Shown: positions 2,581 through 63,067 of the stretch, in pieces
Layout: each line of letters begins with the position of its first letter
Numbering within the stretch: the stretch's first letter is position 1
Assembly (NCBI GenBank): GCA_003344405.1
Contig: NOWV01000013.1
Span: 620,001-684,000, forward strand
Direction: 5' to 3'
Origin: Trichoplax sp. H2
Lineage: Eukaryota
Length of the DNA stretch: 64,000 nt
Notes under the pieces: generated by a model
Told to the model about the DNA's origin: nothing
Seen by the model: the letters and a program-made list of their open reading frames with translations, nothing else
The model's database searches: none
Position numbers and translations under genes: made by a program

Positions 2581-5500
2581 CTAACGGTTGCTATCGATAG
2601 GAATTTTACTTAATTCAAATAAACAATACGCGAGCGCCGAAGATGCTTCCAGGTTATCAAAGGCCAAAGATGCCAAATGTTGCTCGTACCGCCTAAGAAG
2701 ACTGACAGAAAAAGCTCAAAATCAATTCCTTGGCAAACAAAAGTTTTTTCATCAATTTTGATATCAATAGCTGTAGCTTTTGATACTACATACGTTTTAG
2801 CTTCGTGAGTAAATTTAACCAAATTGCGTAACGTTAATGCGGCTGTTAACCGAACGCATTTTGTTAACGGAAGTTCATTTTCCACCTTTGTACAAAGAAG
2901 AAATAAGTTCAAAACGTTGATACACCATTTAATGAAATAGAAATCAAAGTTATAAACCGCGTACTGTGAGTGGAATCTTTGGTTGAGGTGCATACGATTT
3001 CCTAGTAATTTTTTCATTTGATATTTCACCATAATTTTTTATGTGCTTCTAAAAGCGACACCGTAAATCGAAAAATAAATATTTTTCAACTTCATAATTT
3101 ACTTAAAATAGGTTACGAGTATAAATTAACCTGTAGATGAAATATCATAGAGAATCGAGCTCTTTTGACACGTTTTGTAGTGTCATTTAAACAACCTTCC
3201 CATCCACAAAATCCTTGAGAATTATTAGCATGCACATTATAAACATGACTAGCTAGATCCTTCACGTTCTCATAATGCCTATAGAGATAAAAGAATGATC
3301 AACACATCGATATCTAAATTCTACGATACAGAATAACCATACTTGAATACTCTTTTGCTAGATAAACAATGTATGTAAAGCGCATATGCAGTTACTGTAT
3401 GTAACGTACCGTTGGCAATCGTTCCATTTGCAAAGGTACGTTGCATTTTCCGTCTGTTGTTTAGAAGTACCAGTAGCTGCAGTATCTTCTTCAGTAGTGT
3501 CTAATTTATTCAAGCAATTACCGTTCGCTTGGCTAACTTGAGGGTATGCCTGTGTAGGTTGAATTGTCGTCGTGCTAGAACTGGTAATGCCAGCATTCGG
3601 TAACTGTTCATGATTATCAGTCGATAACGTCAAATCAACACTTAGTTGTCCATTAACTTTATTATCTATTTGACTTATTGATGATTTTCTCTTTAATGAT
3701 GTTATTAATTCAACCGATTTCTCTCCATTACTATTATTATTCAACCCTTGCAATTCAGAATTTTCAAATCTCTGATTAAATCCTTTATTACAATCCTTGG
3801 AAATAGATATATCATGCGTAGAAGTTATATCCTTGCGAAATTGTAAGGTTGCACCATTCTGTAAGTTACCAATAACTTTTGGTAAATTAATGCTTGCTTT
3901 CTCTGTAATGTTGCAATTCTTGGAACCGCTTTCGCTGGTTGTTCCGTTAGTATTATCGTCGTCTTTGCTACCGTTATTACTTACGCCTGAAGGATGCAGA
4001 AATCGAAAAGAGCAATCAGATAAAATTTGTACTTTAACGGAAGAAGTCGAAAGACTAGTAGAAGCAGGCTGGTTACTACCTAAACTTGCGTGTACTGTTG
4101 CGACGCTATCAGCTGTTGTTGCGGCAGAATCTTTACTAGTCATAGAACTAGGCGTGGAGTCACAAGATAGAGAAGCGACAACTTTGTTACTACTACCAAA
4201 ATTTTCTTGTCTTAAAGTAGTTGGTCCAGTTGATGCATAATTGCTTCCAGAAGACAACCCTTTATTACGAATATTAGGGTTCGCCAACGGCATTTGAACA
4301 AATTGAGTAGTTTTTTTCAACATTTGACTAGGTAGTCGGATAGCGCCTAACTGAGAATTTTGTTTTTGCGAATCGATAGAGAACTGCGGTCCTTGAGTAC
4401 TAGTGTCGATTCTTTGTAAATTAGCAGTTATATTACCCATACCACCACCTTGAGTACTAGTGTCTATTCTTTGTAAATTAGCAGTTACATTTCCCATACT
4501 TCCACCTTGAGTACTAGTGTCTATTCTTTGTAAATTAGCAGTTATATTACCCATACTTCCACTGTAAGGTTGCACAGTGGGAGTCATGTAAGGCATTTGA
4601 CGTCCCTGAACAGTACCGACAACAGTAGATGTCCGAGCAACACTATTCATTACAGGTAATGTTGGCGTTCGATTAACATTGGAATGTCCTATTAATGGAA
4701 TAATCATATGAATGAGAAAAATAATAACCAACATACATTGTGAATAAAGCTTAAGCGTAGTAATTACCAGGAGTATAAGTAAATGGCAACGGTCGAGCCC
4801 TTTTCCGAACACCAGTATAAAAATATTGATTTGTGTTACCATAGGTAACACGCTTAATTTCCGCAGATGGAAATACTTCGTGTATTAAGCGACTAAATGT
4901 CGTTGAATTAACGATACCAGTGATACTAAGTCTATTGCAGGTAGCCAAGTAATCGGAGTACATACCACTCCGTGGTACATACCCACCGGTACAACAATCG
5001 TAAGTTGCATTTAACCTACAAGGAAATATTAGCATTATTTAAAGGTTTTCAATATAATTTCGATGGGGTACAGAAGCCAATACAGACCATGCATGTGCAA
5101 AATTTTCGTTTTCTCGATCTATTCTTGACATTTCCTCGGCTGATCGAGATACTACAGGGCTAATAATAGCTGCTATATCCGCCATATTATTACTTGACAC
5201 CTGAGGTGGCTGCGCTTGTGCAATTGTGGAGGCGCTAATCTGCGATCTTTTATCGAAAAGAAAAATACCAGCCATGGCCTCTTCGCCGAATTTGTGAACA
5301 TCAAGGCTTACCAGACTGACCAATAAATCTACAAATAATGATAATTGATAGTTGACTGATGATAAAGATATTTTTAGGCATTTTCATCACTGGTATGACA
5401 TTACATGCTATGCGTCTATCACCAATACTTTTAAATAACACAGTACAATATTCGAAATTAGTAACGTAACAATAATAACTCAAGACGACTAACCAATGGA

Positions 5501-10784: not shown

Positions 10785-11090
10785 ATGGAGTACAGTACAA
10801 TGCTACAGTATACAGTACTGTATAGTATGTTGTGGCGTGTAAAATGGCTGTCATCCCATCCAAATGATTGCCAATGAGGATGAACGATGAGTTACTGGGC
10901 GCTAACACGTGATTTATGACTTAATGGGTGATATCATTTTTGGGTACAGTACAATGCCTTTGCATTGTACTGTACCATACTGTAGTGTACTGTACAGTAC
11001 AGTGTACACTGAGTGTACAGTACCGTAAAAGTGGAACGCAAGCCTCATACGTGCTGACGGACGGACTTAGCATGCTGGATACAGTACCAA
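10785..11090. repeat. TACAG/TACTG-saturated tract upstream of ARID2, including a perfect hairpin
   Basis: Runs such as TACAGTATACAGTACTGTA and TACTGTAGTGTACTGTACAGTACAGTGTACAC; 15-bp inverted repeat GGTACAGTACAATGC-CTTT-GCATTGTACTGTACC at 10943-10976. Confidence 0.85.
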
Positions 11091-13018
11091 TCTCTATCAG
11101 TAAACAGCATCTTGTAGCATAAACTGGCGCTTGATGGTAGACGACATAACAAGTTATAAAGCAAATTTGAAAATTAATTAATGAACAAAAATCTAAAATC
11201 AAATTAAAACTAGTTTATGCCCCACTGTTAGAGCAGATAAGACCCTCGCTAGCTGTTCACTGCACCAAGATTGTGCTAGTATGGTACTTTAGAGTTCTAA
11301 ACTACTCCATCAACTACTGTACTCCGAGTGTGACCATTCTACATGCGTACATATTGTACAATCTAGATGGCGCAATGCAATCAATTCAATTCAATTTAAA
11401 TCGGCATCCAGAAATAGCGGCTATATAATCTTGAAATTAATAATATTTGCCATAATACAAATAAATATTAATTATCGTGGTAATAATAAGTATTAACTGC
11501 AATCTGAAATAAGGTGTCGTAATAATATACTGTACCTAGAAGATTTTCTAGTTTAACAACATCTCGATACCAGGGCATATTAACTGATCGCTACTAACGT
11601 ACTAAATTGGAAGAGCATAGTTCGACCAATGTTAGGTTTGGAATAAATTATAGCGATAGTACAACATCTTCGAAAGCTATGTTTTGGATTGCTACTGATT
11701 CTATTGCTCTTACTGTAGCGGCTTCTACAGTAATTGGATCTAATCGACGTTTAAAAATAATGCAGTACGTGCTTGTCATACTATGACTGTATACTATATG
11801 ATGTGTAGTGAACACCATTTTATCCAGTAGCGAACTATGGAAATGATAGATTTGCTAGTTTTGAATTGTGAATTCGTGATCCATTTTACTGCCTAGCTAA
11901 TTTAAGCCCAAATCTGCTAAAAAAAAAGTCCAAATCCGTAGCAAATTCTAGTTACAGCAATACTATAGTACGTAAATATTCCTTTATCATGTTTGCAAGA
12001 AGAGTAGAAAAAATATCAAATTGTAGGCGCGTATATGAACGTTCTTGTTCTGATTTATTTCCATTGCTGTTCTACGTTAGACCCTACTTTGCAGTTTCTT
12101 TGACCTCAAATTTAGGGCTATTACGCGTAGAGCTGATTTTACAACATTATTATATAATGATGGTAAGGAACAAATCGAATAAAACTAATAACAACGACTA
12201 TATATTTAAGGAAGGATTAGGTTAGACATGGACTTTTTTCTTGTTGTCCATGAGTTCCAGTTACTGTAACAGATGGCTAAGACGGTACCGGTACGACAGA
12301 CTCGTATAGTAAATACATTCGATGAAATGGAATAGCAGTTTATTCCCATGACATATGAAAACATGAAACACCAAACTTTAGTTACGGACAGCAATCATAT
12401 CAGCAGTGTCCGTCATAACTTTCTAATCTCCTTCTAATTAATTATGTGTTGATAACATCACGTACTACTATAGCACTAGGGATTATCGGATAAGCATCAT
12501 ATCCCACTAGAGGTAATAATTAAATTATTAAAGCATTAACGACAACATTCCTGATGTCGATCCCTCTGCTGAGCTGATCTTAGTATTCCATTTGTGCTGA
12601 TACACCATCAATACGCGCTATATTTCGCGCAGCTACGGACGAAATAAACTACAATTATATTGTCGAAAATCTATTTATTATAATGATACCACGCTATAGA
12701 TTACACTATAGTATGAAAGACTGAAATTTGACACCTTTCACAAATACAGAGTGAAAGAATCTAACTGTTAACATCAAATAAGCCTTAATATATAAAATTT
12801 AATGCAAATTTACTACTGGTTAGGATAGTTGATGGATTTATCCTTTAAAATGTAATGAAACTATCTACCTAGGTTGAAATAGAATAATGTAATAAAAATA
12901 AATAAATTATAAAATGATTATAAGTTACCATACTTCATACATTTAAAGCCAAAATATCCAGTATAACTTTAATCTTTATCCTGCACTTGTTTTATAACAT
13001 TAGTATTGCAGTCGAAGA

Positions 13019-22492: not shown

Positions 22493-23556
22493 TGCTTCTA
22501 TACCATATTGTATGAAATATTTCTATATTGATTATGATGTGGTTTGCTAGCCATCTTAGGCGAGACGAAGGTTTGATAAATTTCGATGGTTTTAAACAAT
22601 TTTGAAGTGATTTATACTCCTTTGTATACATGCTGTATAGCTATACATATATAGTGCAACAAATATAGATTCAGATATCCTTGCTGGAAATGAAATACAG
22701 CTATAAACCTATTTACTGGTATTAATGTACATAGCAATATATCATTTCGATAATTCAGACAAACTGACAAAAATAAGATATTTTTAATAGTTTATTTAGC
22801 TTTCATTTTTCATTTCTACATGGCGCTGTGCTATACGCATACAGTGCTCCTTTTGATTGTGATGTTGATAAAGTTATTTCTGATTTATATGTTCTAAATT
22901 GGTTGTTAAGCATCACATCACGATGCATCATTTTACCGGAGAAAATATCTGTTGATTTAACATAGGATTCTATTACATGCTAGTTCACTTTACAAAGCAA
23001 TAAAACAAGTTCTTGTGGATATAAATGCTACTATTTTATAGGATGTACTATTTTGAACTGTCTTTAGAATTTGCCTTTATTATTCTAGTACTTTTTCTTA
23101 CTGATTATAACTAATTACAAGCAATTTGTTAGCCGGTTTGCGATTGCACAATGTACAGTATAGTATGAATCAAATTGAATCACTATCCGAGATCAATACA
23201 GTCTTGCCGTTATCATGCTGCTAACTAATTCAATCATGTGAATATTCTTAATGTAATAATTCTATTTTACCTGACTGGCATAAAAAGTAATGGAAACATT
23301 TTATTCCACTGATCCAGACGCGACTGTACGAGCCCGTGAGTACTTACGATCATTGAGTAAAGAAGTACGAATCCGAGAGAGATGTGATATTGTATACTAT
23401 AGTGTGGAGTATTCAGTATGTTGGTATCAGAATATCGATTTATTTTGAAGGATTTGCTATTAAAGTCTTCGGGTCAATATTTCAAAGAAAGCATTGTAAA
23501 AATTAAATTAGAATACAAGTGCTCTACTGGCTGATGCTCCATGGATGTTAATGAAC

Positions 23557-25000
23557 AAAGATTTGTTAGGCATGACTATCCGGATACAGTAGTAAACCGC
23601 TATTACGACATGACTTGTGTGATAACCAAGCTAATTTTAAGTAGGCAAAGTGATTACTTTGACTAGTTTCATCTTCCTGAAGGTACTGTAGATCAGCAAA
23701 AGGATTGATTTGTATTGGAAATTTTAAGGAAGGAACTCAATTTTGCGAATAAAGATTTGCTAGGCATGACTATTCGTATGCAGTAGTCGATGACTATTAC
23801 AGTGTAACTTGTATGATAACCAGGCCAATTCTCAGAAGGCAAAGTGACTACTTTGAGTAGTTTCACCTTGCTGAATGTGCTGTAGATCAGCGTTTCGTAA
23901 AAGGATTGATTTGTATTGGAAATTGCAAAGAAAGATTTGCTAGGCATGATTACGGTATGACTTGTATGATAACCAAGCCAATTCTAAGAAGGCAAAGTGA
24001 CTGCCTTGATTAGTTTCACCTTGCTGAATGTACTATCGATCAACGTTTGGTGAAAGGATTGGTTTGCATTTTGCAAAGAAAGATTTGCTAGGCATGATTA
24101 CGGATGATAATCAAGCCAATTGTAAGTAGGCAAAGTGACTACTTTGATTAGTGTCTCCTTGCTGAATGTACTATCGATCAACGTTTGGCGAAAGGATTGG
24201 TTTGTATTGGAAATTGGAAAGAAGTAAGCCAATTTTACCCCGTTGTCCATTAGTTGGATTAGTTTCACCTTGCTGAATGTACTATCGATCAACGTTTGGT
24301 GAAAGGATTGGTTTGCATTTTGCAAAGAAAGATTTGCTAGGTATGATTACGGATGATAACCAAGCCAATTGTAAGTAGGCAAAGTGACTACTTTGATTAG
24401 TGTCTCCTTGCTGAATGTACTATCGATCAACGTTTGGCGAAAGGATCGGTTTGTATTGGAAATTGGAAAGAAGTAAGCCAATTTTACCCCGTTGTCCATT
24501 AGTTGGATTAGTTTCACCTTGCTGAATGTACTATCGATCAATGTTTGGTGAAAGGATTGGTTTGCATTTTGCAAAGAAAGATTTGCTAGGCATGATTACG
24601 GATGATAACCAAGCCAATTGTAAGTAGGCAAAGTGACTACTTTGATTAGTGTCTCCTTGCTGAATGTACTATGGATCAACGTTTGGCGAAAGGATTGGTT
24701 TGCATTTTGCAAAGAAAGATTTGCTAGGTATGATTACGGATGATAATCAAGCCAATTGTAAGTAGGCAAAGTGACTACTTTGATTAGTGTCTCCTTGCTG
24801 AATGTACTATCGATCAACGTTTGGCGAAAGGATTGGTTTGTATTGGAAATTGGAAAGAAGTAAGCCAATTTTACCCCGTTGTCCATTAGTTGGATTAGTT
24901 TCACCTTGCTGAATGTACTATCGATCAATATTTCGCCAAAGGATTGGTTTGTATTGGAAATTTGAAAGAAGTAAATTGAATTTTGCCCCGTTGTCCATTA
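23557..25000. repeat. Tandem array with a 249-bp higher-order unit built from related ~138 and ~111 bp subunits
   Basis: The anchor GATTTG(C/T)TAGG occurs at about 23560, 23754, 23934, 24082, 24331, 24580 and 24718. Both subunits share CCTTGCTGAATGTACTATCGATCAACGTTTGG(C/T)GAAAGGATTGGTTTG; leftmost copies are more diverged. Confidence 0.95.
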
Positions 25001-25722
25001 GCAACTCCCATCGATCGACTAAAATAACTCCTCAACACTGTAGTAAAAATGGATCAAACTACCAAGGGCCAATATTACTCAACATTGTCATGATCCATTT
25101 ACGTGCAATTGGAGCCATCTTAAAGTCAATACTCAATCTTTCCAATTTCAAGATGTAATTTTGAGCTAAAAGCGCTTTTAACCCATCAGACAAGATGGAG
25201 GTAGGAGGCGTGACAACATCGAGTGCCGATGATCACAACGGACTGCTCTCCTACTCAGTACAGTTGATACCGGTAGAGTATAGGAGGTCAGAGTCAAATG
25301 AAAAGCCATGTGCTTATATTGGGTATACCGTGTACGATACGGTAACGTAAGCTAAGGGTAAAGTACTGCAGCGAAGGAGTTGAGCAAGGCCTCAAATGAA
25401 TCGATCTTCTTCTTGGCAAAGCAAAGGTAGTTGGAGGCTGTGGCGAGTGGATGATGGAGCGATTTCAAGCTTGATTTTAACTCGGAGTACGTTTGAGAAG
25501 CATTCAGAATATTTTCTAAGTAAAAAGGGCAACGGAAGAGACCTACTGTAATCCATCCATACTGTATTGGCTGAAGATTAGAGGTGCAAGCGATCGATCA
25601 ACCACCTCCATTACACGATCGACAACCGGCTGGACGACATCTATCGAAAGACACGAGTAGCAACAATAATTTCATTTCCTACTACAATTCTTGGGTATAG
25701 CTGTGAATAAACAACTGTAAAG

Positions 25723-28700
25723 ATGGCCAAGAAACGAATGAAAAGTCTTAAGGATTCGATGGAGACGAGATTTAAAGTAAGTAGCAATGGTTGATTGTAC
25801 AAGCAATTCATTCTCCCTCTACAGGATTATTTGTACATTCTTTGCTGAAACATCATCTCTGTTTTTATCCATAATCATGCTCGTACCCGTTATCAAATCA
25901 TTGCCTGTATTTCAGGATAGGTATCAAGATATTCATTGCTCAAGGCTAATGCTAGTTATTGTTTAGTAGAAAAGCTACTATACATATGAAATGATCCAAT
26001 TTCAATTTGACTATATTGTATTGGCATTCCATGATGTAGATCAATACAAAAGCCAATGGATGATCCTTGTTAGCTTATACCACAACAGTCAGCCAGTGAT
26101 TACTGTATCTTTTGACAAAGAATTCAAGGTAGCATTGGTGTAGGATAAAGGATAAGCTAGAAAATAGAATTGGACAGCTTAACTCTTTATGATATAAAAT
26201 AATCAATATATACGAGCCTACCTATAATGTAGATACATTTGACGTAGTAGCTACAATAGCCTGCGCTACAGGCATTACATCCGTACGCCATTAGATAGAC
26301 TGACGTAGAGTAATAGTGTATATATATATAACATTAGCTATCTACATTACAGTACAGTATTCATGACTGATATGAAATAATCAATATATACGAACCTACC
26401 TATAATGTAGATAGATTTGAAGTAGTAGCTGCAATAGCCTGCGCTACAGGCATTACATCCGTACGCCATTACATAGACTGACGTAGAGTAATAGTGTATA
26501 TATAACATTACCTATCTACATTAGAGTATTCATGACTGATATAAAATAATCAATATATACGAACCTACCTATAATGTAGATAGATTTAAAGTAGTAGCTG
26601 CAATAGCCTGCGCTACAGGCATTACATCCGTACGCCATTTGATAGACTGACGTAGAGTAATAGTGTATATTACATTAGCCATCAACATTTAGAGTATTCA
26701 TGACTTACTCTGCAATTCATTTCAACTACTGGCATATACAGTAGTACTATAATCCATGATGGACTGCTCTTAGCTAATATACAGTATAATTGTAGTCCTA
26801 CTACAGTATAGCTTACCTACGATACCAGAAGAAAGATACATCCACTTATTACAAACATGTACTGAGAGAGATACTGCAAACGTATACTCGTGTTGTATCA
26901 GCTACTAAAATTATAATATTCCTTCACTCATAGTTGCAATCCTACCTACAACTTACTTACAGTACAGGTATTGACAAAATAATACAACTACATATACTTA
27001 TGTAGAAACATATTGAATATGGTATCAACCATTAAAATTATAATATTCATTCATGGCCAATTCACTACAATGTATTTGAAGTAGATGCATTTAGTAATCC
27101 ATGATACAAATTGCGGTCGTACCGTAGCTCGCTTATAGCAGGCATTGAGGAAAGATACAACTACACATTTGTAACGGTACAACTAATATGATGCATTATT
27201 TTCAAGAATTGGAATTCTATTACTCTATTTCTAACTTCTTCATTTTACAGTTTAAAGGTTTTCATGAACGTATTGCAAGCATTCGAATTGATGTCATTCA
27301 TCGAGCTCAAAAAAGGAAATCAAACCCTGAGGTTGAGATAATAACATAGCAAACGTGATTATTATAGAAAGTACTCAATTATTCTTATTCAAACTCTGCA
27401 GCTTCTTTACCCTTCTTGTAATACAGTAATGTTGTTCTACTTGTGTGATCAAATGTACTCCTACTATAATGTTCATTCATTATGTCATTTGCAAGAAATA
27501 GAAACAAATGCTCAAGTTCGTCTACATGAATATAGCATATATTCTTATCCAGAAAAGATTCGATATCGTTTAATCGTAGATAATTTTCTTATATGATGAT
27601 TTTTGAATAAATTAGAGAGATAACTTGAACACTTTTAGCTAACATGTGGACTAGCAGTACAGTATAACAGTGCAGCAATTTTTGGGGGAGCAAATGACAT
27701 ACTATTGTATGAAGTATATGTACATTCTTGTCTAGGGATATCCTAGCAACGAATTTATGAGAAATTTTATGTTACAATATATTTCTAGTCTAATGCAATC
27801 CTCAAACTAGTATTGTGATTTGCAGGCTAGTATTCCTTTGGATATGAATAGAGGCTATTACAGTATATAGTTGATAAGCAGTTGTGTCTTAATACTCTAG
27901 CTTAATTTAGCTTGTACTTACCTACGGTACGTTTTATAATCAGTCTAAGAATACACCACAATACAAGCGTTATTTGCAATCCAATGTCTGAAATTGTATG
28001 CAGTCTATAACCTGAATAATTCTAATTGAAAATTAAAAATTGATATTGCATTCAAACTATTTTAATTAGATTTATAGTTTTTATATGTAGAGATAGTACT
28101 GTGCTGATTTATACATGTTAGTCCTTGAGATTTATATTGATACCAGATAAATTTTTTATATAAGGATGCCGAGACGTTCTTTATGGAAGCATTATTTAAA
28201 TGGACTGACTTGAATTGTAGTACAGAATTTGGTTAGTACGTTCGAGTACTATAGTTTTAAAATTAGGATCATTTAAAAATAACATACGTATAATTTTGTT
28301 ATACTTCAATATTTCATCAGTACAATTCAGGCGTGAGGTTTATCACTATTGTCAAACTTTGCCTCAACTAGTCCATCATAAGGTGAGAAAGTTTGTATCG
28401 CTTAACAAATTAAAGGGCACTCTATGCCATGTATTTAGTTATCATGTTCCTGTATTGTTGCTAGTATTGTAAATACTTATGTGTATACAATAACAACTTA
28501 CTTTTACATCATCGATTGTACATCTTATTCTTATCAGCCCTGATTAACTTATTGCTGTGTAGCGTGTTGCGTGATTAGGGTATTACCATCTTTTAACGGG
28601 CGTTATTTTCTGTTATTATATGCATGAATGAAATTGACTATTAGAATGAAATTTTTCAATTACTGAAGACATATCTGGAGAAAAAATCAATTCTAACTAT

Positions 28701-45800: not shown

Positions 45801-48800
45801 TTTACCACTTGAACGAAGGATAAAGTCAAGAATGCCTTTTAAAATATCTCGAAAAGTTGAAAATGAGAGTGGATCTTCTAGAAATAAGAATTGCAAAGAT
45901 CATCGTTACTAGTCATGATTGATCCATTCGCTAGGCTTACTGTTTTCTTATATTTACCAGCTTTACTATTAATAGAAGATTCTAAACCAACTGGAGTATC
46001 CCTCATCCTAAATGAAGCTAATTTGCGAAATTGTGCCATTAGGGCCAAGACAACGCCAGCAGCTGGGGCTTGAATTTCCGGCATTGCACCATCTCTACAA
46101 CACTGGTTAACATAATAGTCATCGATCATTTATAACATATAATAAAGATTTTCTCGAGCAGAATATATCTATTGTACAACTTTAATACACACCCGATCAA
46201 GTATCTCCTGCAGTAATCGCAATAATAAATCTTCACGCATTTTAGGTTGAAAAAGATCGAATGGACAGGCTCCAAATATTACTTCAACTACTTCTTGCCA
46301 GGCTTCAAATGCTTGTAATTTGGCATACAGAGCACACTGCCTCTTATTCATGAGAACAACATGTTTCAGTAAAGCTTGGATTTCCTAATTATATAATTGA
46401 AAATGCTTCAGCTAATAGTCAAGATTGAAATTGTTAATGATAGAAGTTAAATGCCTAACATTATTCAATCGTTCCTTGTCGATAGTAGCTTTACTTAGGA
46501 TATTGTTGACTTCTTCCTGTAAAATTCGTCGAAAAAAGTTAATATTACAAATTTTGGCGTTATTTTGACGCCAAACTTGTTGGCATGATTGCACGGCTTG
46601 ATCCAGCGCTGTTGGATCGAAAAATTCTAATTGCAGGTCAGCTTGCATATCCTGCTTCACATTGATACAGTCCAGTAAACAAAATAGCCTAATTTTCTTC
46701 TGATGAGTTGTTCTACCAGCTATAAAAATTTGAAATTTTAGTAAAAATATCAGTAATGCACTGCGATAAATAAATTGTTACGCGAGGCATAAAGATAGAT
46801 TTCCATTATCAATACTGAAATGCAATGTATATTAATTAATATAATGGAGAAGAGATCGAATGCATTACCGTCAAAACAAGAAAATTCACTAATGAAGGTC
46901 TTGCTTTGTAGTGCTGTACTTATACTGCCAACATCATCTTCAGTGATATTAGATGAACTGACCAATAATTCAACGAGGTTCTATTGTTGTGAACAATCAG
47001 AATTTTCACTTTAGATGAATTACACCTTTAATCTTTCGAAAATGAAATCAGCTAAGTTAATTAGACCAGGATTGTATAGCTCGCAAATACTCACCTGAGT
47101 ATCAGATCTTTGACGGTTTAAAGACGTAGATTGTAATTCAAGAGCAATACATTTCAGTAGCCAAGATTGTTGTAATAACATGATGACTTTGAATGGGTCT
47201 GGACTATCTGCTTCGTCATGTGTCTGAATATCTATTAAGAAAGACAGTATTTTAAAACATTGCAAGACTAAGAAGTTAATCATAGGGTACAAGCGCAGGT
47301 TTTTTAATACCGTTGGTAAAAGGCATCCTATACAAGTGCTTAGTGAAGAATTCGTGGTTGTTTCTCAAGTATCGTATAGTTGCATTGCAAGTTTCTGTCG
47401 ATGAACATAATTTATAAATGACATGGTAACACTGTTCAACAATTTGTGGAGGTTCCCTAAAACCGTTGTCCAGATTTCTTTGTAGAATGGTCAAGATTGC
47501 ATGTAGACATGTATGAGGAGTGCCTAAAATTCCTAATGGTACTGCGGCTATTAGTAACACGGAGGATAACAAAATAGAAGTAAAGGGTAATTTCAAAATA
47601 TGATATCTGATACTTTTAAGCCTACCTGGGTCTTGTAGAATTGTTTTGGAAACAGATTTACGAACATCATAACCTAATAGAAAATGAGCCAAACTAGGCG
47701 CAGGTAGATCTAGACAGTAAAGTAAAAGTTCAAGGATGCTTTCGCTCACAGCGGTATGGGTCTGAGTCGTATCTAAAATACTTTCATCTCCTTGAAACAA
47801 GACATAAAGTTTAAAGATTGATCGTTCAGATATAAAGAATGTCTACCTTTACACAGTCCCTCATCGTTATGAACATATTGTGGCTAACCTTTCTCAATGT
47901 ATTCTTGATCAAGATCTTGCAAGAAATTCGGTTCGTTATAGAGCGTTTCTAAGTGTTCCACAAAGCCTTTCATAATTTCAAGTGCAATTTCCTACGGAAA
48001 TTTTATATTTATAATAGTTAGTTGCATATCATAAAATCGATTCTGAGTGCTACTACGGAGTACATTTAACTACACAGTAGTAAAGATTACCGGCGTATTG
48101 GTCAGGACGGTAATGATATCTGATTGCAACATAGATGAACGACACATATGGTATAATATATTAACAGCTGATAAAGCTAAATTAGGATTTGTATTCCCGT
48201 GCGTCAGAAATCTGTAGGGGACAAAAAGAACTTATATTATAGTAACTAATAGGGACCAGATAAGCATGATTTAGCATAATCTCTAACCTGGCAATATACA
48301 ATAAATGATCCGTGCTACGAGTATGCGGATTAACATCTAGCAACAATGCACTTAATGGAGTAACAACTAATGATATATCGTATGCACGGAGTATTCGAAA
48401 TAGCTGCTTTTCCAGATGTAAGCTCAACTCCATTAACCGTAAAGCATAGAGGGCAGCTTCCTCCAAATAATTTCTTCCAGCTGTATTAATAAGTAGAAAC
48501 ATTACAATACTGGATCGAGTAAAAGTTCACGTACAAAGTGTTCCGCACACACATATACATCAATAACGATGTCTATGAAGTCTTACAATAACGTTTTATA
48601 CTTACAAGTGCTGGAAGCAAGTTCATCAAGTCCTGTACCAGCAGTATAGGTTACCGATAAAACCTGATTTATAAAAAAATAGTGCATTATAAGTTTATGG
48701 TTGTTCGCAATAGTAGCAAGAAAAAAAGGAACAATTTGGTTGTACAGAATTATTACCAGTTTTAACATAGGAGTTGGCTGTAACATTCTTAAAAATAGTT

Positions 48801-51800: not shown

Positions 51801-53474
51801 GGAATCCATTATTTTAGCAGTTATTCCTATAACATCAAGAAAGGAAAATATCTTAACAAGGTAGTTTAAGAGCGAAAGCTGAGTTGGTTGAATGGAGATG
51901 AATATACTGCTATAGCAATTTGTTTGGATGATAATATTAAGGTTGTAGCGTAACAAAGTTAAAAGAATGAGATCATGTTAAAATCATTTAACGTATCACT
52001 AATGACAGTTGAGATTAGTGGATTGTATTTATCCAGTATTACCTTCATCCATAAGATCATTAGTATATTTAGCAACTAATTGGATAAATTCTTCACCCAG
52101 ATCAGAGTCATTAGAGCCATCAAATCTCCATTGAATGAGCGATCGTAAAGAATAGGAAAGACAGCGGCAACCATCGTAATACAGTATTATAGCTAAAGGT
52201 AAACGTTGTAATCCAGGAAAACGTGGTTTCTGATGTTCACTAGCTAAGAGTAACTCCATGGAAGCATATTCGTTTAAATCTAAAATATCGCTTAAATTAA
52301 GAGCTTCTTCGATGAAAGACTGACTGAAAATGCGTGGAACTGGTTCGCCATAGACTTGAATGCCAGAAGTAGCGCCATGTTCTTTGATATTTTTTCGGTC
52401 TAATGCACTTCTCCTCTGTTAGGAAATAGTCATAACAAGTTTATCATTTAAAGCTGTTATTTTGACATGATCGAATTATGCAAAGTGTTGGAATGATATG
52501 CTACGCTATAGCCATGTTCCAATCGTGGTTGGCTGAGTGTAGCGTCTATATCTCTCGTATAGTACAGTACATAGGTAGTTGGAAGTTGCGCTATATGCAG
52601 TATTGCCTGCATCAAGGTAAATTTGAGTTGAATTGATTTGTATCATGGCGCCTGGTATATCGATCGATTGATACGACTGTTGCATAAGTTTTTAAGTATT
52701 TTTACGCCTACTGTAGAATGGTCAATTTATTGACTTGATGCAAGTTGTCTGTAGTTGAATAATTTTATTCTGTACAATAGCAAGATATTATTTTCTATCC
52801 TTGCTTATGTGGCTATTATTTTCTATCCTTGCTTATGTGGCTATTATTTTCTATCCTCGCTTATCTGGCTATTATTTTCTATCCTTACTTATACGGGATT
52901 AGACTAATGTAGATCAAATCATTGAAAAGGATGACAGAAAAGTGCTTATGACACTTAAAATGTTGTATCATCGTTAAAAGAGATGCTACATAATGAACTA
53001 ACCGTTGAGGAGAAGAGAGATAACAACTGAGGTTTATATTTTTTCAGTACTGTTTCAAATTCATGGTAATCCGGTAGCTTGTCCAAAGTCAACGTCGATT
53101 CGACAATATGCCAAATTTCTTTACTGGGACCCCAAACTATATATTGTTGGATAGATTGGCAAGAAATGAATGAGTATGATGTATGCTAGACAAAAAATGA
53201 TTGCATCATTCTACTAGTATCGTCGATGAAAGAAGACTGTCATTTTGCAGCCTATCCAGCATCTCGATACATGAAGTCATTGGTTGATAGCTCGTTCAAG
53301 TGAAATGTTAACTTTCTTTAAAATACGTTCATCTTAAAGTGCTTCAAGACAATTTGTACATGTCTATCCATAAATGATGATGGAATCAATATCAATAAAA
53401 TGATCATTTTAATTTGAGCAAAGAAGAGAATTGATTACTGTTGTACCTCCTCGAACTTGAGTGGAGACCGCCAT
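42858..53474 (-). CDS. NUP205: Nuclear pore complex protein Nup205, many short exons
   Basis: Exon 1 (53447-53474) MAVSTQVRG splices to VWGPSKEIWHIV..LKKYKPQLLSLF. Further motifs: EALNLSDILDLNEYASMELL, IGELYKTDP..LEYWC, LKAEILLTLAGFAKS, APSLAHFLLGYD, WLLKCIALEL, YIIENSLYVVWHHLEYF, and C-terminal IYGKDKSRLEFIHALIR. Stop at 42858-42860. Confidence 0.95.
43600..43723 (-). other. Candidate U12-type (minor spliceosome) GT-AG intron in NUP205
   Basis: 5' splice site GTATCCTTT; branch-like TTCTTAGC shortly before the 3' AG. Splicing joins ..TNYF|YIIENS.. in frame. Confidence 0.75.
52786..52892. repeat. 28-bp minisatellite (~3.8 copies) in NUP205 intron 2
   Basis: TATTATTTTCTATCCTTGCTTATGTGGC at 52786, 52814, 52842 and 52870 (last partial). 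Confidence 0.92.
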
Positions 53475-53511: not shown

Positions 53512-53945
53512 AGGCTGCGGGCTGGTAGCGCAGTCGTGCAGGGCCATCTACAGTACCCAGCTCAGTAGAGTACAGTGCAGTGCAGTAGGGTACAGTACAG
53601 TACTGTACTGTGGAGTAAAGTACTGTACACTGTACTGTACAGCCATGAACCACTAGAAATACAGTACCGTACAGTATGGCACTACGGCTGCGGGCTGGTG
53701 GCGCCTGCGCAGTCGTGCAGGACCATCTACTGTACTGTACTGTACTGCACTGTACACTGTACAGTATTCTTCTAGTAGTCTTTGCTATAGGCTAGCAGTT
53801 TGATATTGTCCTGCGCAGTAGAGTATTACCTGTGTGAGTACAGTGATTTTCTTCACCTGTACTGTACACTGTACTGTACGACTGTGTGAGACTGAAATCG
53901 TCTCCATCAGAATTGGACAACGACGACTTATTGTACTGTACACTA
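53512..53945. repeat. NUP205 upstream region: duplicated GC-rich block plus TACAG/TACTG-saturated tracts
   Basis: GGCTGCGGGCTGGT..GCGCAGTCGTGCAGG.CCATCTAC at about 53513 and 53686, each followed by TACAG/TACTG runs. NRF1-like GCGCCTGCGCA at 53701-53711. Confidence 0.8.
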
Positions 53946-54270: not shown

Positions 54271-55187
54271 CTATGAAGATGGAAGGCGGCGAAGAAGCGC
54301 CATGGTACACCGGTACAGTGTCAGGTCTAGACTAGCGCCCTATGACTACAATGTACAGTGTACAGTACGGGGTATCGCGCTGTACTGTACACTGTACTGT
54401 ACACGCTTCTCCTATGAAGATGGAAGGAGGCGAAGAAGCGCCATGGTGCACCGGTACAGTGTCAGGTCTACTGTACTGTATGTAGACTAGCGCCCTATGA
54501 CTACAATGTACAGTGTACAGTACGGGGTATCGCGCTGTACTGTACACGCTTCTCCTATGAAGATGGAAGGAGGCGAAGAAGCGCCATGGTACAGTACAGT
54601 ACAGTGTCAGGTCTACAGTAGACTAGCGCCCTACAGTATGACTACAGTGTACAGTGTACAGTACGGGGTATCGCACTGTACTGTACACTGTACACGCTTC
54701 TCCTAGGAAGATGGAAGGAGGCGAAGAAGCGCCATGGTACAGTACAGTGTAGCACTGTCAGGTCTAGACTAGTGCCCTATGACTACAGTGTACAGTGTAC
54801 AGTACGGGGTATCGCACTGTACTGTACACTGTACACGCTTCTCCTAGGAAGATGGAAGGAGGCGAAGAAGAAGCATGGTACAGTGTCAGGTCTAGACTAG
54901 CGCCCTACTGTATGACTACAGTGTACAGTGTACAGTACGGGGTGTCGCGCTGTACTGTACACTGTACACGCTTCTCCTATGAAGATGGAATATGACTACA
55001 GTGTACAGTGTACAGTACGGGGTATCGCTCTCTACAGTACTGTACTGTACTGTATAAAGATGGAAGGAGGCGAAGAAGAGCCATGGTACAGTGTAGCGCT
55101 GTCAGGTCTACTGTAGACTAGCGCCCTATGACTACAGTGTACAGTGTACAGTACAGGGTATCACGGCCTACTGGACACTGTACACGC
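54271..55187. repeat. Tandem array, ~7 copies of a ~130-148 bp unit, between divergent NUP205 and E2F7/8
   Basis: The unit CTA(T/G)GAAGATGGAAGGAGGCGAAGAAGCGCCATGG..TCAGGTCTA..GACTAGCGCCCTA..CGGGGTATCGC..ACACGCTTCTC starts at about 54271, 54412, 54555, 54703, 54844, 54977 (internally deleted) and 55057. Confidence 0.95.
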
Positions 55188-55210
55188 TGCATCCATTCAT
55201 CAAGGCTTGT

Positions 55211-55269
55211 GATTGGCTGCAATTTAAATCATTCACGCCTGCGCTGTATCCACCGTCTTTTCGCGCGAA
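55211..55269 (+). promoter_or_regulatory. Putative cell-cycle promoter core for E2F7/8: CCAAT box, CHR-like TTTAAA, E2F site
   Basis: ATTGG at 55212-55216, TTTAAA at 55223-55228, CGCCTGCGC at 55236-55244, TTTTCGCGCGAA at 55258-55269. Confidence 0.55.
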
Positions 55270-62242: not shown

Positions 62243-63067
62243 GCAAAATTGATGTTTTGGCCATAGTCTAGTTGTGACCATGCAGTACTAGAGAATGGAA
62301 AAAATATTGTTGCTCAAATGCTCAATACACCTACTGTACTGTGCTAGGCTGAAACTGGAGTACTGTATAGTAAGCTGTAGTTCTAAGTCCATATTGCATA
62401 AATTACTTCTACTAATTTATGCAAAATGGCTAGTCTCCGATCATGAACTTGGAGACACTACAGTTTGGTGCCTGGCACCTTACTGCTTTAATAATGCACA
62501 CAGCCATTCTGTAGACTACAGTACTAAAGAAGGTCTTGCAAAATTGATGTCTTGGCCATAGTTTCGTTGTGACCATGCAGTACTAGAGAATGGAAAAAAT
62601 ATCAGCAATATTTTTAAAAAATATTGCTGCTCAAATGCTCAATACACCTACTGTACTGTGCTAAGATGGCTAGTCTCCGATCATGAACTTGGAGACACTA
62701 CAGTTTGGTGCCTGGCACCTTACTGCTTTAATAATGCACACAGCCATTCTGTAGACTACAGTACTAAAGAAGGTCTTGCAAAATTGATGTCTTGGCCATA
62801 GTTTCGTTATGACCATGCAGTACTAGAGAATGGAAAAAATATTGTTGCTCAAATGCTCAATACACCTACTGTACTGTGCTAGGCTGAAACTGGAGTATAG
62901 TAAGCTGTAGTTCTAAGTCCATATTGCATAAATTACTTCTACTAATTTATCCAAAATGGCTAGTCTCCGATCATGAACTTGGAGACACTACAGTTTGGTG
63001 CCTGGCACCTTACTGCTTTAATAATGCACACAGCCATTCTGTAGACTACAGTACTAAAGAAGGTCTT
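62243..63067. repeat. 3-copy tandem repeat (~295, 240, 290 bp) rich in short palindromes
   Basis: Units begin GCAAAATTGATG at 62243, 62538 and 62778. The middle copy has an internal deletion and a small insertion. Confidence 0.95.

Follow-up and report, generated by a model that had tools for sequence, protein, structure and literature searches.

TA-bounded 5-bp insertions in placozoan repeat arrays as possible Tc1/mariner-type excision footprints

Results

The window, i.e., the whole 64-kb stretch of DNA that was analyzed, contains Nup205-like, UTP20-like, E2F, RFX and EF-hand genes. The exon at 47276-47842 (minus strand) has 79% identity to the T. adhaerens Nup205-like protein TRIADDRAFT_22433 while the next match reaches 35%, and the window therefore comes from a placozoan other than T. 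adhaerens. Tandem repeats are common, consistent with the 2.4% that minisatellites are reported to make up in Trichoplax, and include arrays at 23553-25001 (period 138/249 bp), 26190-26716 (169 bp) and 52786-52892 (28 bp).

The array of interest (54271-55199) is intergenic. The gene downstream of it is the Nup205-like one, with its N-terminal exon at 52032-52418 (minus strand). The array consists of seven head-to-tail units of ~141 bp each, and TRF describes it as period 141 with 5.1 copies. In the unit alignment these are u1 (54271-54411), u2 (54412-54554), u3 (54555-54702), u4 (54703-54843), u5 (54844-54976), the truncated u6 (54977-55051) and u7 (55052-55199). Directly upstream of the array, at 53536-53940, TACAG/CTGTA words of both orientations form a degenerate patch. 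Directly after the last unit follow GATTGGCT (55210-55219) and the palindrome TTCGCGCGAA (55260-55269), which we take to be CCAAT-box-like and E2F-site-like, respectively; read in this way, the two words suggest a putative promoter at the array's edge.

Two isolated TA dinucleotides vary between the units. Site A (GGTC-TA-GAC) is empty at 54328-54329 (u1), 54765-54766 (u4) and 54893-54894 (u5), and is filled by TACAGTA at 54614-54620 (u3), by TACTGTA at 55109-55115 (u7) and by TACTGTACTGTATGTA at 54469-54484 (u2). The latter reads TA-CTG-TA-CTG-TA-TG-TA, that is, two canonical units and one TATGTA. Site B (GCCC-TA-TGAC) is empty at 54341-54342 (u1), 54496-54497 (u2), 54778-54779 (u4) and 55127-55128 (u7), and is filled by TACAGTA at 54632-54638 (u3) and by TACTGTA at 54906-54912 (u5). 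Across the six full units, the filled states at the two sites represent at least five independent ones, and both central letters are present at each site. The initial annotation had reported these positions from the sequence, and its coordinates were all correct, with one empty site B (54496, u2) omitted. The alignment and indel tabulation that it proposed gave TA versus TACAGTA/TACTGTA at two isolated TA sites in the seven-unit array. It also bore out that the CAG/CTG inserts are not copied from adjacent bases or other neighboring sequence, and that both orientations occur at one site, which holds for A as well as B.

The changes recur between young paralogues. Pairwise substitution distances between units range from 1.6% for u1/u2 (2 mismatches in 129 columns) and 2.9% for u3/u4 (4 mismatches in 138 columns) up to 15%, and the site state differs within each of these two closest pairs. 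With so few substitutions, motif indels must be about as frequent as all substitutions per unit. In u6, from which ~80 bp were lost, the right breakpoint of the deletion junction (54984-54996) is exactly the site B TA; this fits, weakly, with breaks made there. When metagenomes were scanned with the repeat unit, allowing the gap at site A to vary, 0 matches were obtained.

The same difference is found elsewhere in the window. In copy 1 of an unrelated repeat, TACTGTA occupies an isolated TA at 62361-62367 and the sister copy has plain TA at 62896-62897; CTGGAG-TACTGTA-TAG (62355-62370) thus aligns with CTGGAG-TA-TAG (62890-62900) in copies that are 95.4% identical. At this position and at sites A and B, the gain is exactly C(A/T)GTA at an isolated TA, flanked by two TA as opposed to one in the paralogues, and does not represent growth of an earlier motif run. 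A second case is ambiguous: TACAGTACAGTA at 26348-26359 in unit 1 of the 169-bp array corresponds to TAGAGTA in the other two units (26518-26531 and 26685-26699), and a substitution is also required. The three units of a tandem array at 338-771 differ mainly in gained or lost TACAG/CTGTA words in both orientations, and alignment of the 23553-25001 array showed no simple motif indels.

A possible, although fairly unlikely, explanation is motif-specific turnover of a micro- or minisatellite in which no transposase takes part. TACAG words would then spread through tandem duplication of short stretches, through slippage during replication and through switches of template at the GTAC palindrome found in every junction. 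Sites A and B might have been filled ancestrally and emptied by TA..TA microhomology deletion, with the central A/T changed by point mutation or switching. Several unit differences are indeed plain tandem duplications of existing words, namely the 12-mer CTGTACTGTACA (x2.1 at 54380-54404 by TRF), the 7-mer TGTACAC (u2 versus u3) and TACAG, which is present one to three times in the 5' part of the unit. However, sites A, B and 62361 offer no prior motif copy or GTAC for slipping or switching, the inserted bases are no copy of a neighbor, and two exact central transversions would be required at about 2-10% divergence. In terms of parsimony, insertions alone need ~7 steps and deletion plus central transversion ~8 or more, so that the orientation argument alone favors insertion, and the empty state is a putative ancestral one.

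Template switching is active in this DNA, as seen from the middle copy of the repeat at 62.2-63.1 kb. This copy carries a 22-bp insertion (62594-62615) that is an inverted copy of what follows, and within it CAGCAATATTTTT (62603-62615) is the reverse complement of the adjoining AAAAATATTGCTG. Such a snap-back event, located in a neighboring array and unrelated to the TACAG motif, speaks for turnover by strand switching, as does the structure of the junctions at which motif orientation changes: TACAGTACTGTA (7 times) and TACTGTACAGTA (3 times) are all perfect palindromes centered on GTAC, which strand switching predicts.

Across the 64 kb of the window, TACAGTA was counted 166 times on the two strands together, compared with a mean of 14.47 (largest 24) in 100 dinucleotide-preserving shuffles, and TACWGTA is the top-ranking 7-mer. 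The motif forms patches at 0-2, 10-12, 26-28, 52-56 and 62-64 kb. Parsing of the whole window as TA(CWGTA)n gave 139 arrays, comprising 121 single, 11 double, 5 triple and 2 quadruple ones, and the longest perfect run has four units. Among the 27 junctions within these arrays, orientation is kept in 17 and switched in 10. The same-orientation majority speaks for turnover. Nevertheless, the arrays are short and nearly random in orientation, which is unlike slippage: a slippage microsatellite has long homogeneous head-to-tail runs and varies within runs only, and here 121 of 139 arrays are single, no perfect run exceeds four units, 10 of 27 junctions switch and gains are found at isolated TA. 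Turnover also leaves unexplained why the dominant pentamer should coincide exactly with TA-CWG-TA, the canonical footprint. Stacked scars account better than slippage for the insertions at isolated TA, the two orientations per site, the preponderance of single units and the near-random array orientation.

The enrichment is limited to TA-flanked words. TACAGTG (48 versus 8.6 expected) is raised together with TACAGTA (166 versus 15.2 expected in this comparison), and CACAGTG is not (3 versus 4.9 expected). The latter count ruled out an RSS/Transib heptamer, which had been considered as a candidate. A second TA-bounded word, TA-CAGTG-TA (TACAGTGTA/TACACTGTA, 7-bp unit), was found 26 times compared with 0.9 expected, e.g., at 54347-54366 and 10999-11012, and 17 of the 26 adjoin canonical units. 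This word forms a 12-bp palindrome, CAGTGTACACTG. Other Sleeping Beauty footprints showed no enrichment in the window (TACATA/TATGTA, 68 versus 93 expected; TACGTA, 18 versus 18.3 expected), and the blunt-join product TACAGCTGTA had 0 occurrences in it. Beside canonical units, the tokens CA/TG (5 observed versus 2.5 expected), C/G (14 versus 11) and CG (2 versus 0.66) were counted, with no window-wide excess.

Breaks that arise in the ordinary way and are repaired by polymerase-theta-type end joining could also insert the motif. An end would prime on a nearby TACAG/CTGTA word via TA microhomology, copy a few bases and rejoin, and motif-rich regions would thereby seed further motif in either orientation. 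We find this distinctly unlikely, although a motif copy is present within a few tens of bases at each informative site: GGTACAGTG precedes site A by 12 nt, and TACTGTACTGTG precedes 62361 by ~25 nt. The strong clustering of the words in the patches listed above also favors such seeding, and the inverted insertion at 62594-62615 shows that other sequence has been inserted in a templated manner. However, templated end joining gives variable lengths and junctions, and here, without exception, exactly 5 bases or a stack of 5-base units have been inserted with both TAs intact. Moreover, 52 single words have no motif-like 4-mer within 10 nt, many of them in AT-rich gene bodies, and the specificity for TA is left unexplained.

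Compared with TA sites in general, the flanks of these 52 isolated singles are only mildly different (chi-square p = 0.019), which speaks for an origin as excision scars. There is a mild G/C excess beside the words. This excess, and the position of the array upstream of the Nup205-like gene, could point to selection for a functional word of the form GTACWGTAC, such as a transcription factor or insulator binding site in promoter-proximal DNA, with an unremarkable mutational source. In the main-text parts covered here, Wang et al. (2010; PMC2871265) report that 54% of ACAGT repeats in T. adhaerens lie within 1 kb upstream of genes and propose a role as transcription factor binding sites, offering no origin for them there. 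A 2026 neural-network study, in the part covered, ties repeating ACAGT to insulation in the same species (PMC12817080). As the main cause of the pattern we regard selection as very unlikely. Selection creates no 5-base insertions, and it does not explain the same TA indel in both orientations between near-identical units. Isolated words are also about 4-fold over expectation in the gene bodies at 12-52.5 kb (33 arrays versus ~9 as the share of the shuffle mean).

The initial annotation had called for a search for DD34E/D transposases and for TA-flanked elements with CAG..CTG ends; within the window, to which our search was confined, neither was recovered. No transposase, integrase or DDE family was among the 16 Pfam families matched when 157 of the 163 ORFs (>=65 aa) of the window were scanned, the other six ORFs all lying within the array. 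Rfam gave 0 matches in the window. Pairs of TACAG...CTGTA with matching 20-nt arms revealed no convincing TA-CAG...CTG-TA inverted-repeat element in the window, as 13 of the 14 candidate arm pairs consist of the motif itself. The remaining pair, a 543-bp candidate at 11726-12268, was rejected since its arms match at 16/20, which is chance level, and its sequence does not read as element-like. A 508-aa ORF at 3358-4884 (minus strand) was likewise discarded as a transposase, having no Pfam match and encoding a low-complexity Ser/Thr-rich repeat protein. This protein is rich in Ser, Thr and Asn, and a 57-bp coding repeat at 4391-4562 gives GSMGNITANLQRIDTSTQG three times.

Discussion

The differences between TA and TAC(A/T)GTA could be scars left where a transposase of the Tc1/mariner superfamily (IS630-Tc1-mariner) had cut both strands at TA. 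Although no single explanation is secure, we give this reading a chance that falls a little short of even. An element with TA-CAG(TG)...(CA)CTG-TA ends, present now or in the past, would have entered a TA and duplicated it. Staggered cuts at excision would leave a 3-nt CAG overhang on each flank, the overhangs would pair except for an A:A mismatch at their center, and either TACAGTA or TACTGTA would be fixed by end joining. Each scar would provide two new TA targets, and through repeated hits scars would hence pile up, randomly oriented, as short mixed arrays, with later growth in the same orientation in part by ordinary small duplications and slippage. Over time, and in open promoter-proximal DNA, such stacking may give rise to the (ACAGT)n-type words that prevail among the simple repeats of placozoans. 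The form of the insertions, their TA sites, the two orientations, the recurrence in young paralogues and the excess across the window are observed; the transposase as the break-maker, the mobile element with these ends and the empty state as the ancestral one are inferred.

The comparison with Sleeping Beauty and Tc1-like footprints is close in several respects. According to the part of the preprint covered here, Sleeping Beauty leaves two canonical footprints, TACAGTA and TACTGTA, produced by a 3-nt stagger and a mismatch, and TATGTA is a minor, non-canonical one (bioRxiv 10.1101/659086). The window shares with these footprints the duplicated TA, three inner bases in the place of the terminal element bases, either central letter, the gain of 5 bp and the TATGTA variant. 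CAG and CTG both occur at each site and at 81:85 (A:T) over all TACWGTA units; the element ends that they would match are putative. Unlike the known footprints, the scars number 166 in 64 kb and are stacked in arrays, and no donor element, transposase or occupied allele is seen in the window. The co-occurrence of the 7-base TA-CAGTG-TA, which is no described footprint, and the lack of enrichment of other non-canonical footprints also set the window apart from Sleeping Beauty.

The usual terminus of Tc1-type elements is CAGTG. CAG and CAGTG might accordingly represent two odd-length prefixes of a CAGTG end, each annealing to its inverted partner except at the center, which would yield TAC(A/T)GTA and TACA(G/C)TGTA, respectively. 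The CAGTG word would require a 5-nt stagger, and we know of no described Tc1/mariner cleavage of this kind.

The initial annotation had viewed the pentamer repeat as a stacked record of Tc1/mariner excision that only resembles a microsatellite. The form of the insertions, their isolated TA sites, both orientations and the short mixed arrays, which are unlike slippage products, agree with that view; the part that lacks a counterpart in the window is the transposase or element itself. Its further suggestions of a hyperactive element or a domesticated cut-and-rejoin system are conjecture. Nor is the motif new, as it equals the (ACAGT)n already published for T. adhaerens, and the proposed footprint origin alone would be new.

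In the parts of Wang et al. (2010; PMC2871265) covered, 61.8% of T. adhaerens microsatellites are pentanucleotide and 78% of those are ACAGT, counted as perfect repeats >12 bp. ACAGT is a rotation of TACAG/CAGTA, and the pentamer, the phylum and the promoter-proximal setting are all shared; the window motif is thus the same phenomenon in another placozoan. TA borders, single units, mixed orientation and insertion polymorphism are not mentioned in the main-text parts covered of that paper. Our literature search found no link of ACAGT or placozoa to excision footprints in the sources it reached, with most subscription journals and supplements outside the search.

Cuts at TA are also known from a programmed system. 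The TA-bounded internal eliminated sequences of Paramecium have ends that resemble Tc1/mariner termini (PMC3464196; PMC3408717). They share with the window TA-delimited cuts with CAG-like inner bases, features that point to a Tc1/mariner ancestry. However, Paramecium excision is precise, developmentally programmed and leaves a single TA, whereas the window shows an imprecise 5-bp scar and no sign of programmed elimination.

It also counts against a footprint origin that related Trichoplax genomes are poor in transposable elements, yet each hot TA would have to be hit at a very high rate. The same scarcity favors turnover. From the sections of the genome papers covered, transposable elements make up 0.13% of the T. 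adhaerens genome, and its mariner/Tc1 fragments number 11 (Wang et al., 2010; PMC2871265). Three of these fragments have full ORFs, which speaks for the footprint reading, but they are single copy and devoid of TIRs. DNA transposons account for 0.5-0.6% in Trichoplax genomes, where Ginger elements predominate among them, and no more than 9-12 sequences score above the Pfam thresholds for transposase, reverse transcriptase or integrase (Kamm et al., 2018; PMC6057997). The elements are judged inactive by the authors. Mutator elements near placozoan promoters are described in the covered part of a more recent study (Kim et al., 2025; PMC12221973). A bolder version of the footprint reading is that placozoans retain a Tc1/mariner-type, TA-specific cut-and-rejoin activity, low-copy or domesticated, still active and with a preference for open promoter-proximal DNA, whose TAC(A/T)GTA and TACA(G/C)TGTA scars stack at their own TA targets and are the origin of (ACAGT)n. 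A nearly transposon-free genome would then hold a dense record of transposase activity, since tied to chromatin insulation. We consider this full version unlikely.

That (ACAGT)n is so abundant in Placozoa was noted in 2010 as lacking an explanation and has been so since, and the motif has lately been tied to chromatin insulation. A footprint origin, if true, would supply a concrete mutational mechanism for this abundance, and would show that the scars of excision can grow into a major part of the sequence and seed simple repeats. It would also imply that transposases have been substantially active in a lineage in which active transposable elements are considered to be nearly absent. Should the footprint reading be wrong, a mechanism is still required for 5-bp insertions that are specific to TA and random in orientation.

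Stacked motif words also give rise to secondary structure. An inverted repeat at 54647-54695 (GTGTACAGTGTACAGTAC ... GTACTGTACACTGTACAC) is found in each unit, with further copies at 54788, 54921, 55001 and 55137. As folded DNA it forms a 20-bp stem of -21.3 kcal/mol (z = -7.47), and 0 of 200 shuffles were equally good. Its borders in the array units are TA-CAGTG ... CACTG-TA, and it looks like a miniature TIR pair. A smaller palindromic pair lies in otherwise unique sequence at 11700-11735, where TACTGTA and TACAGTA stand inverted with GCGGCTTC between them.
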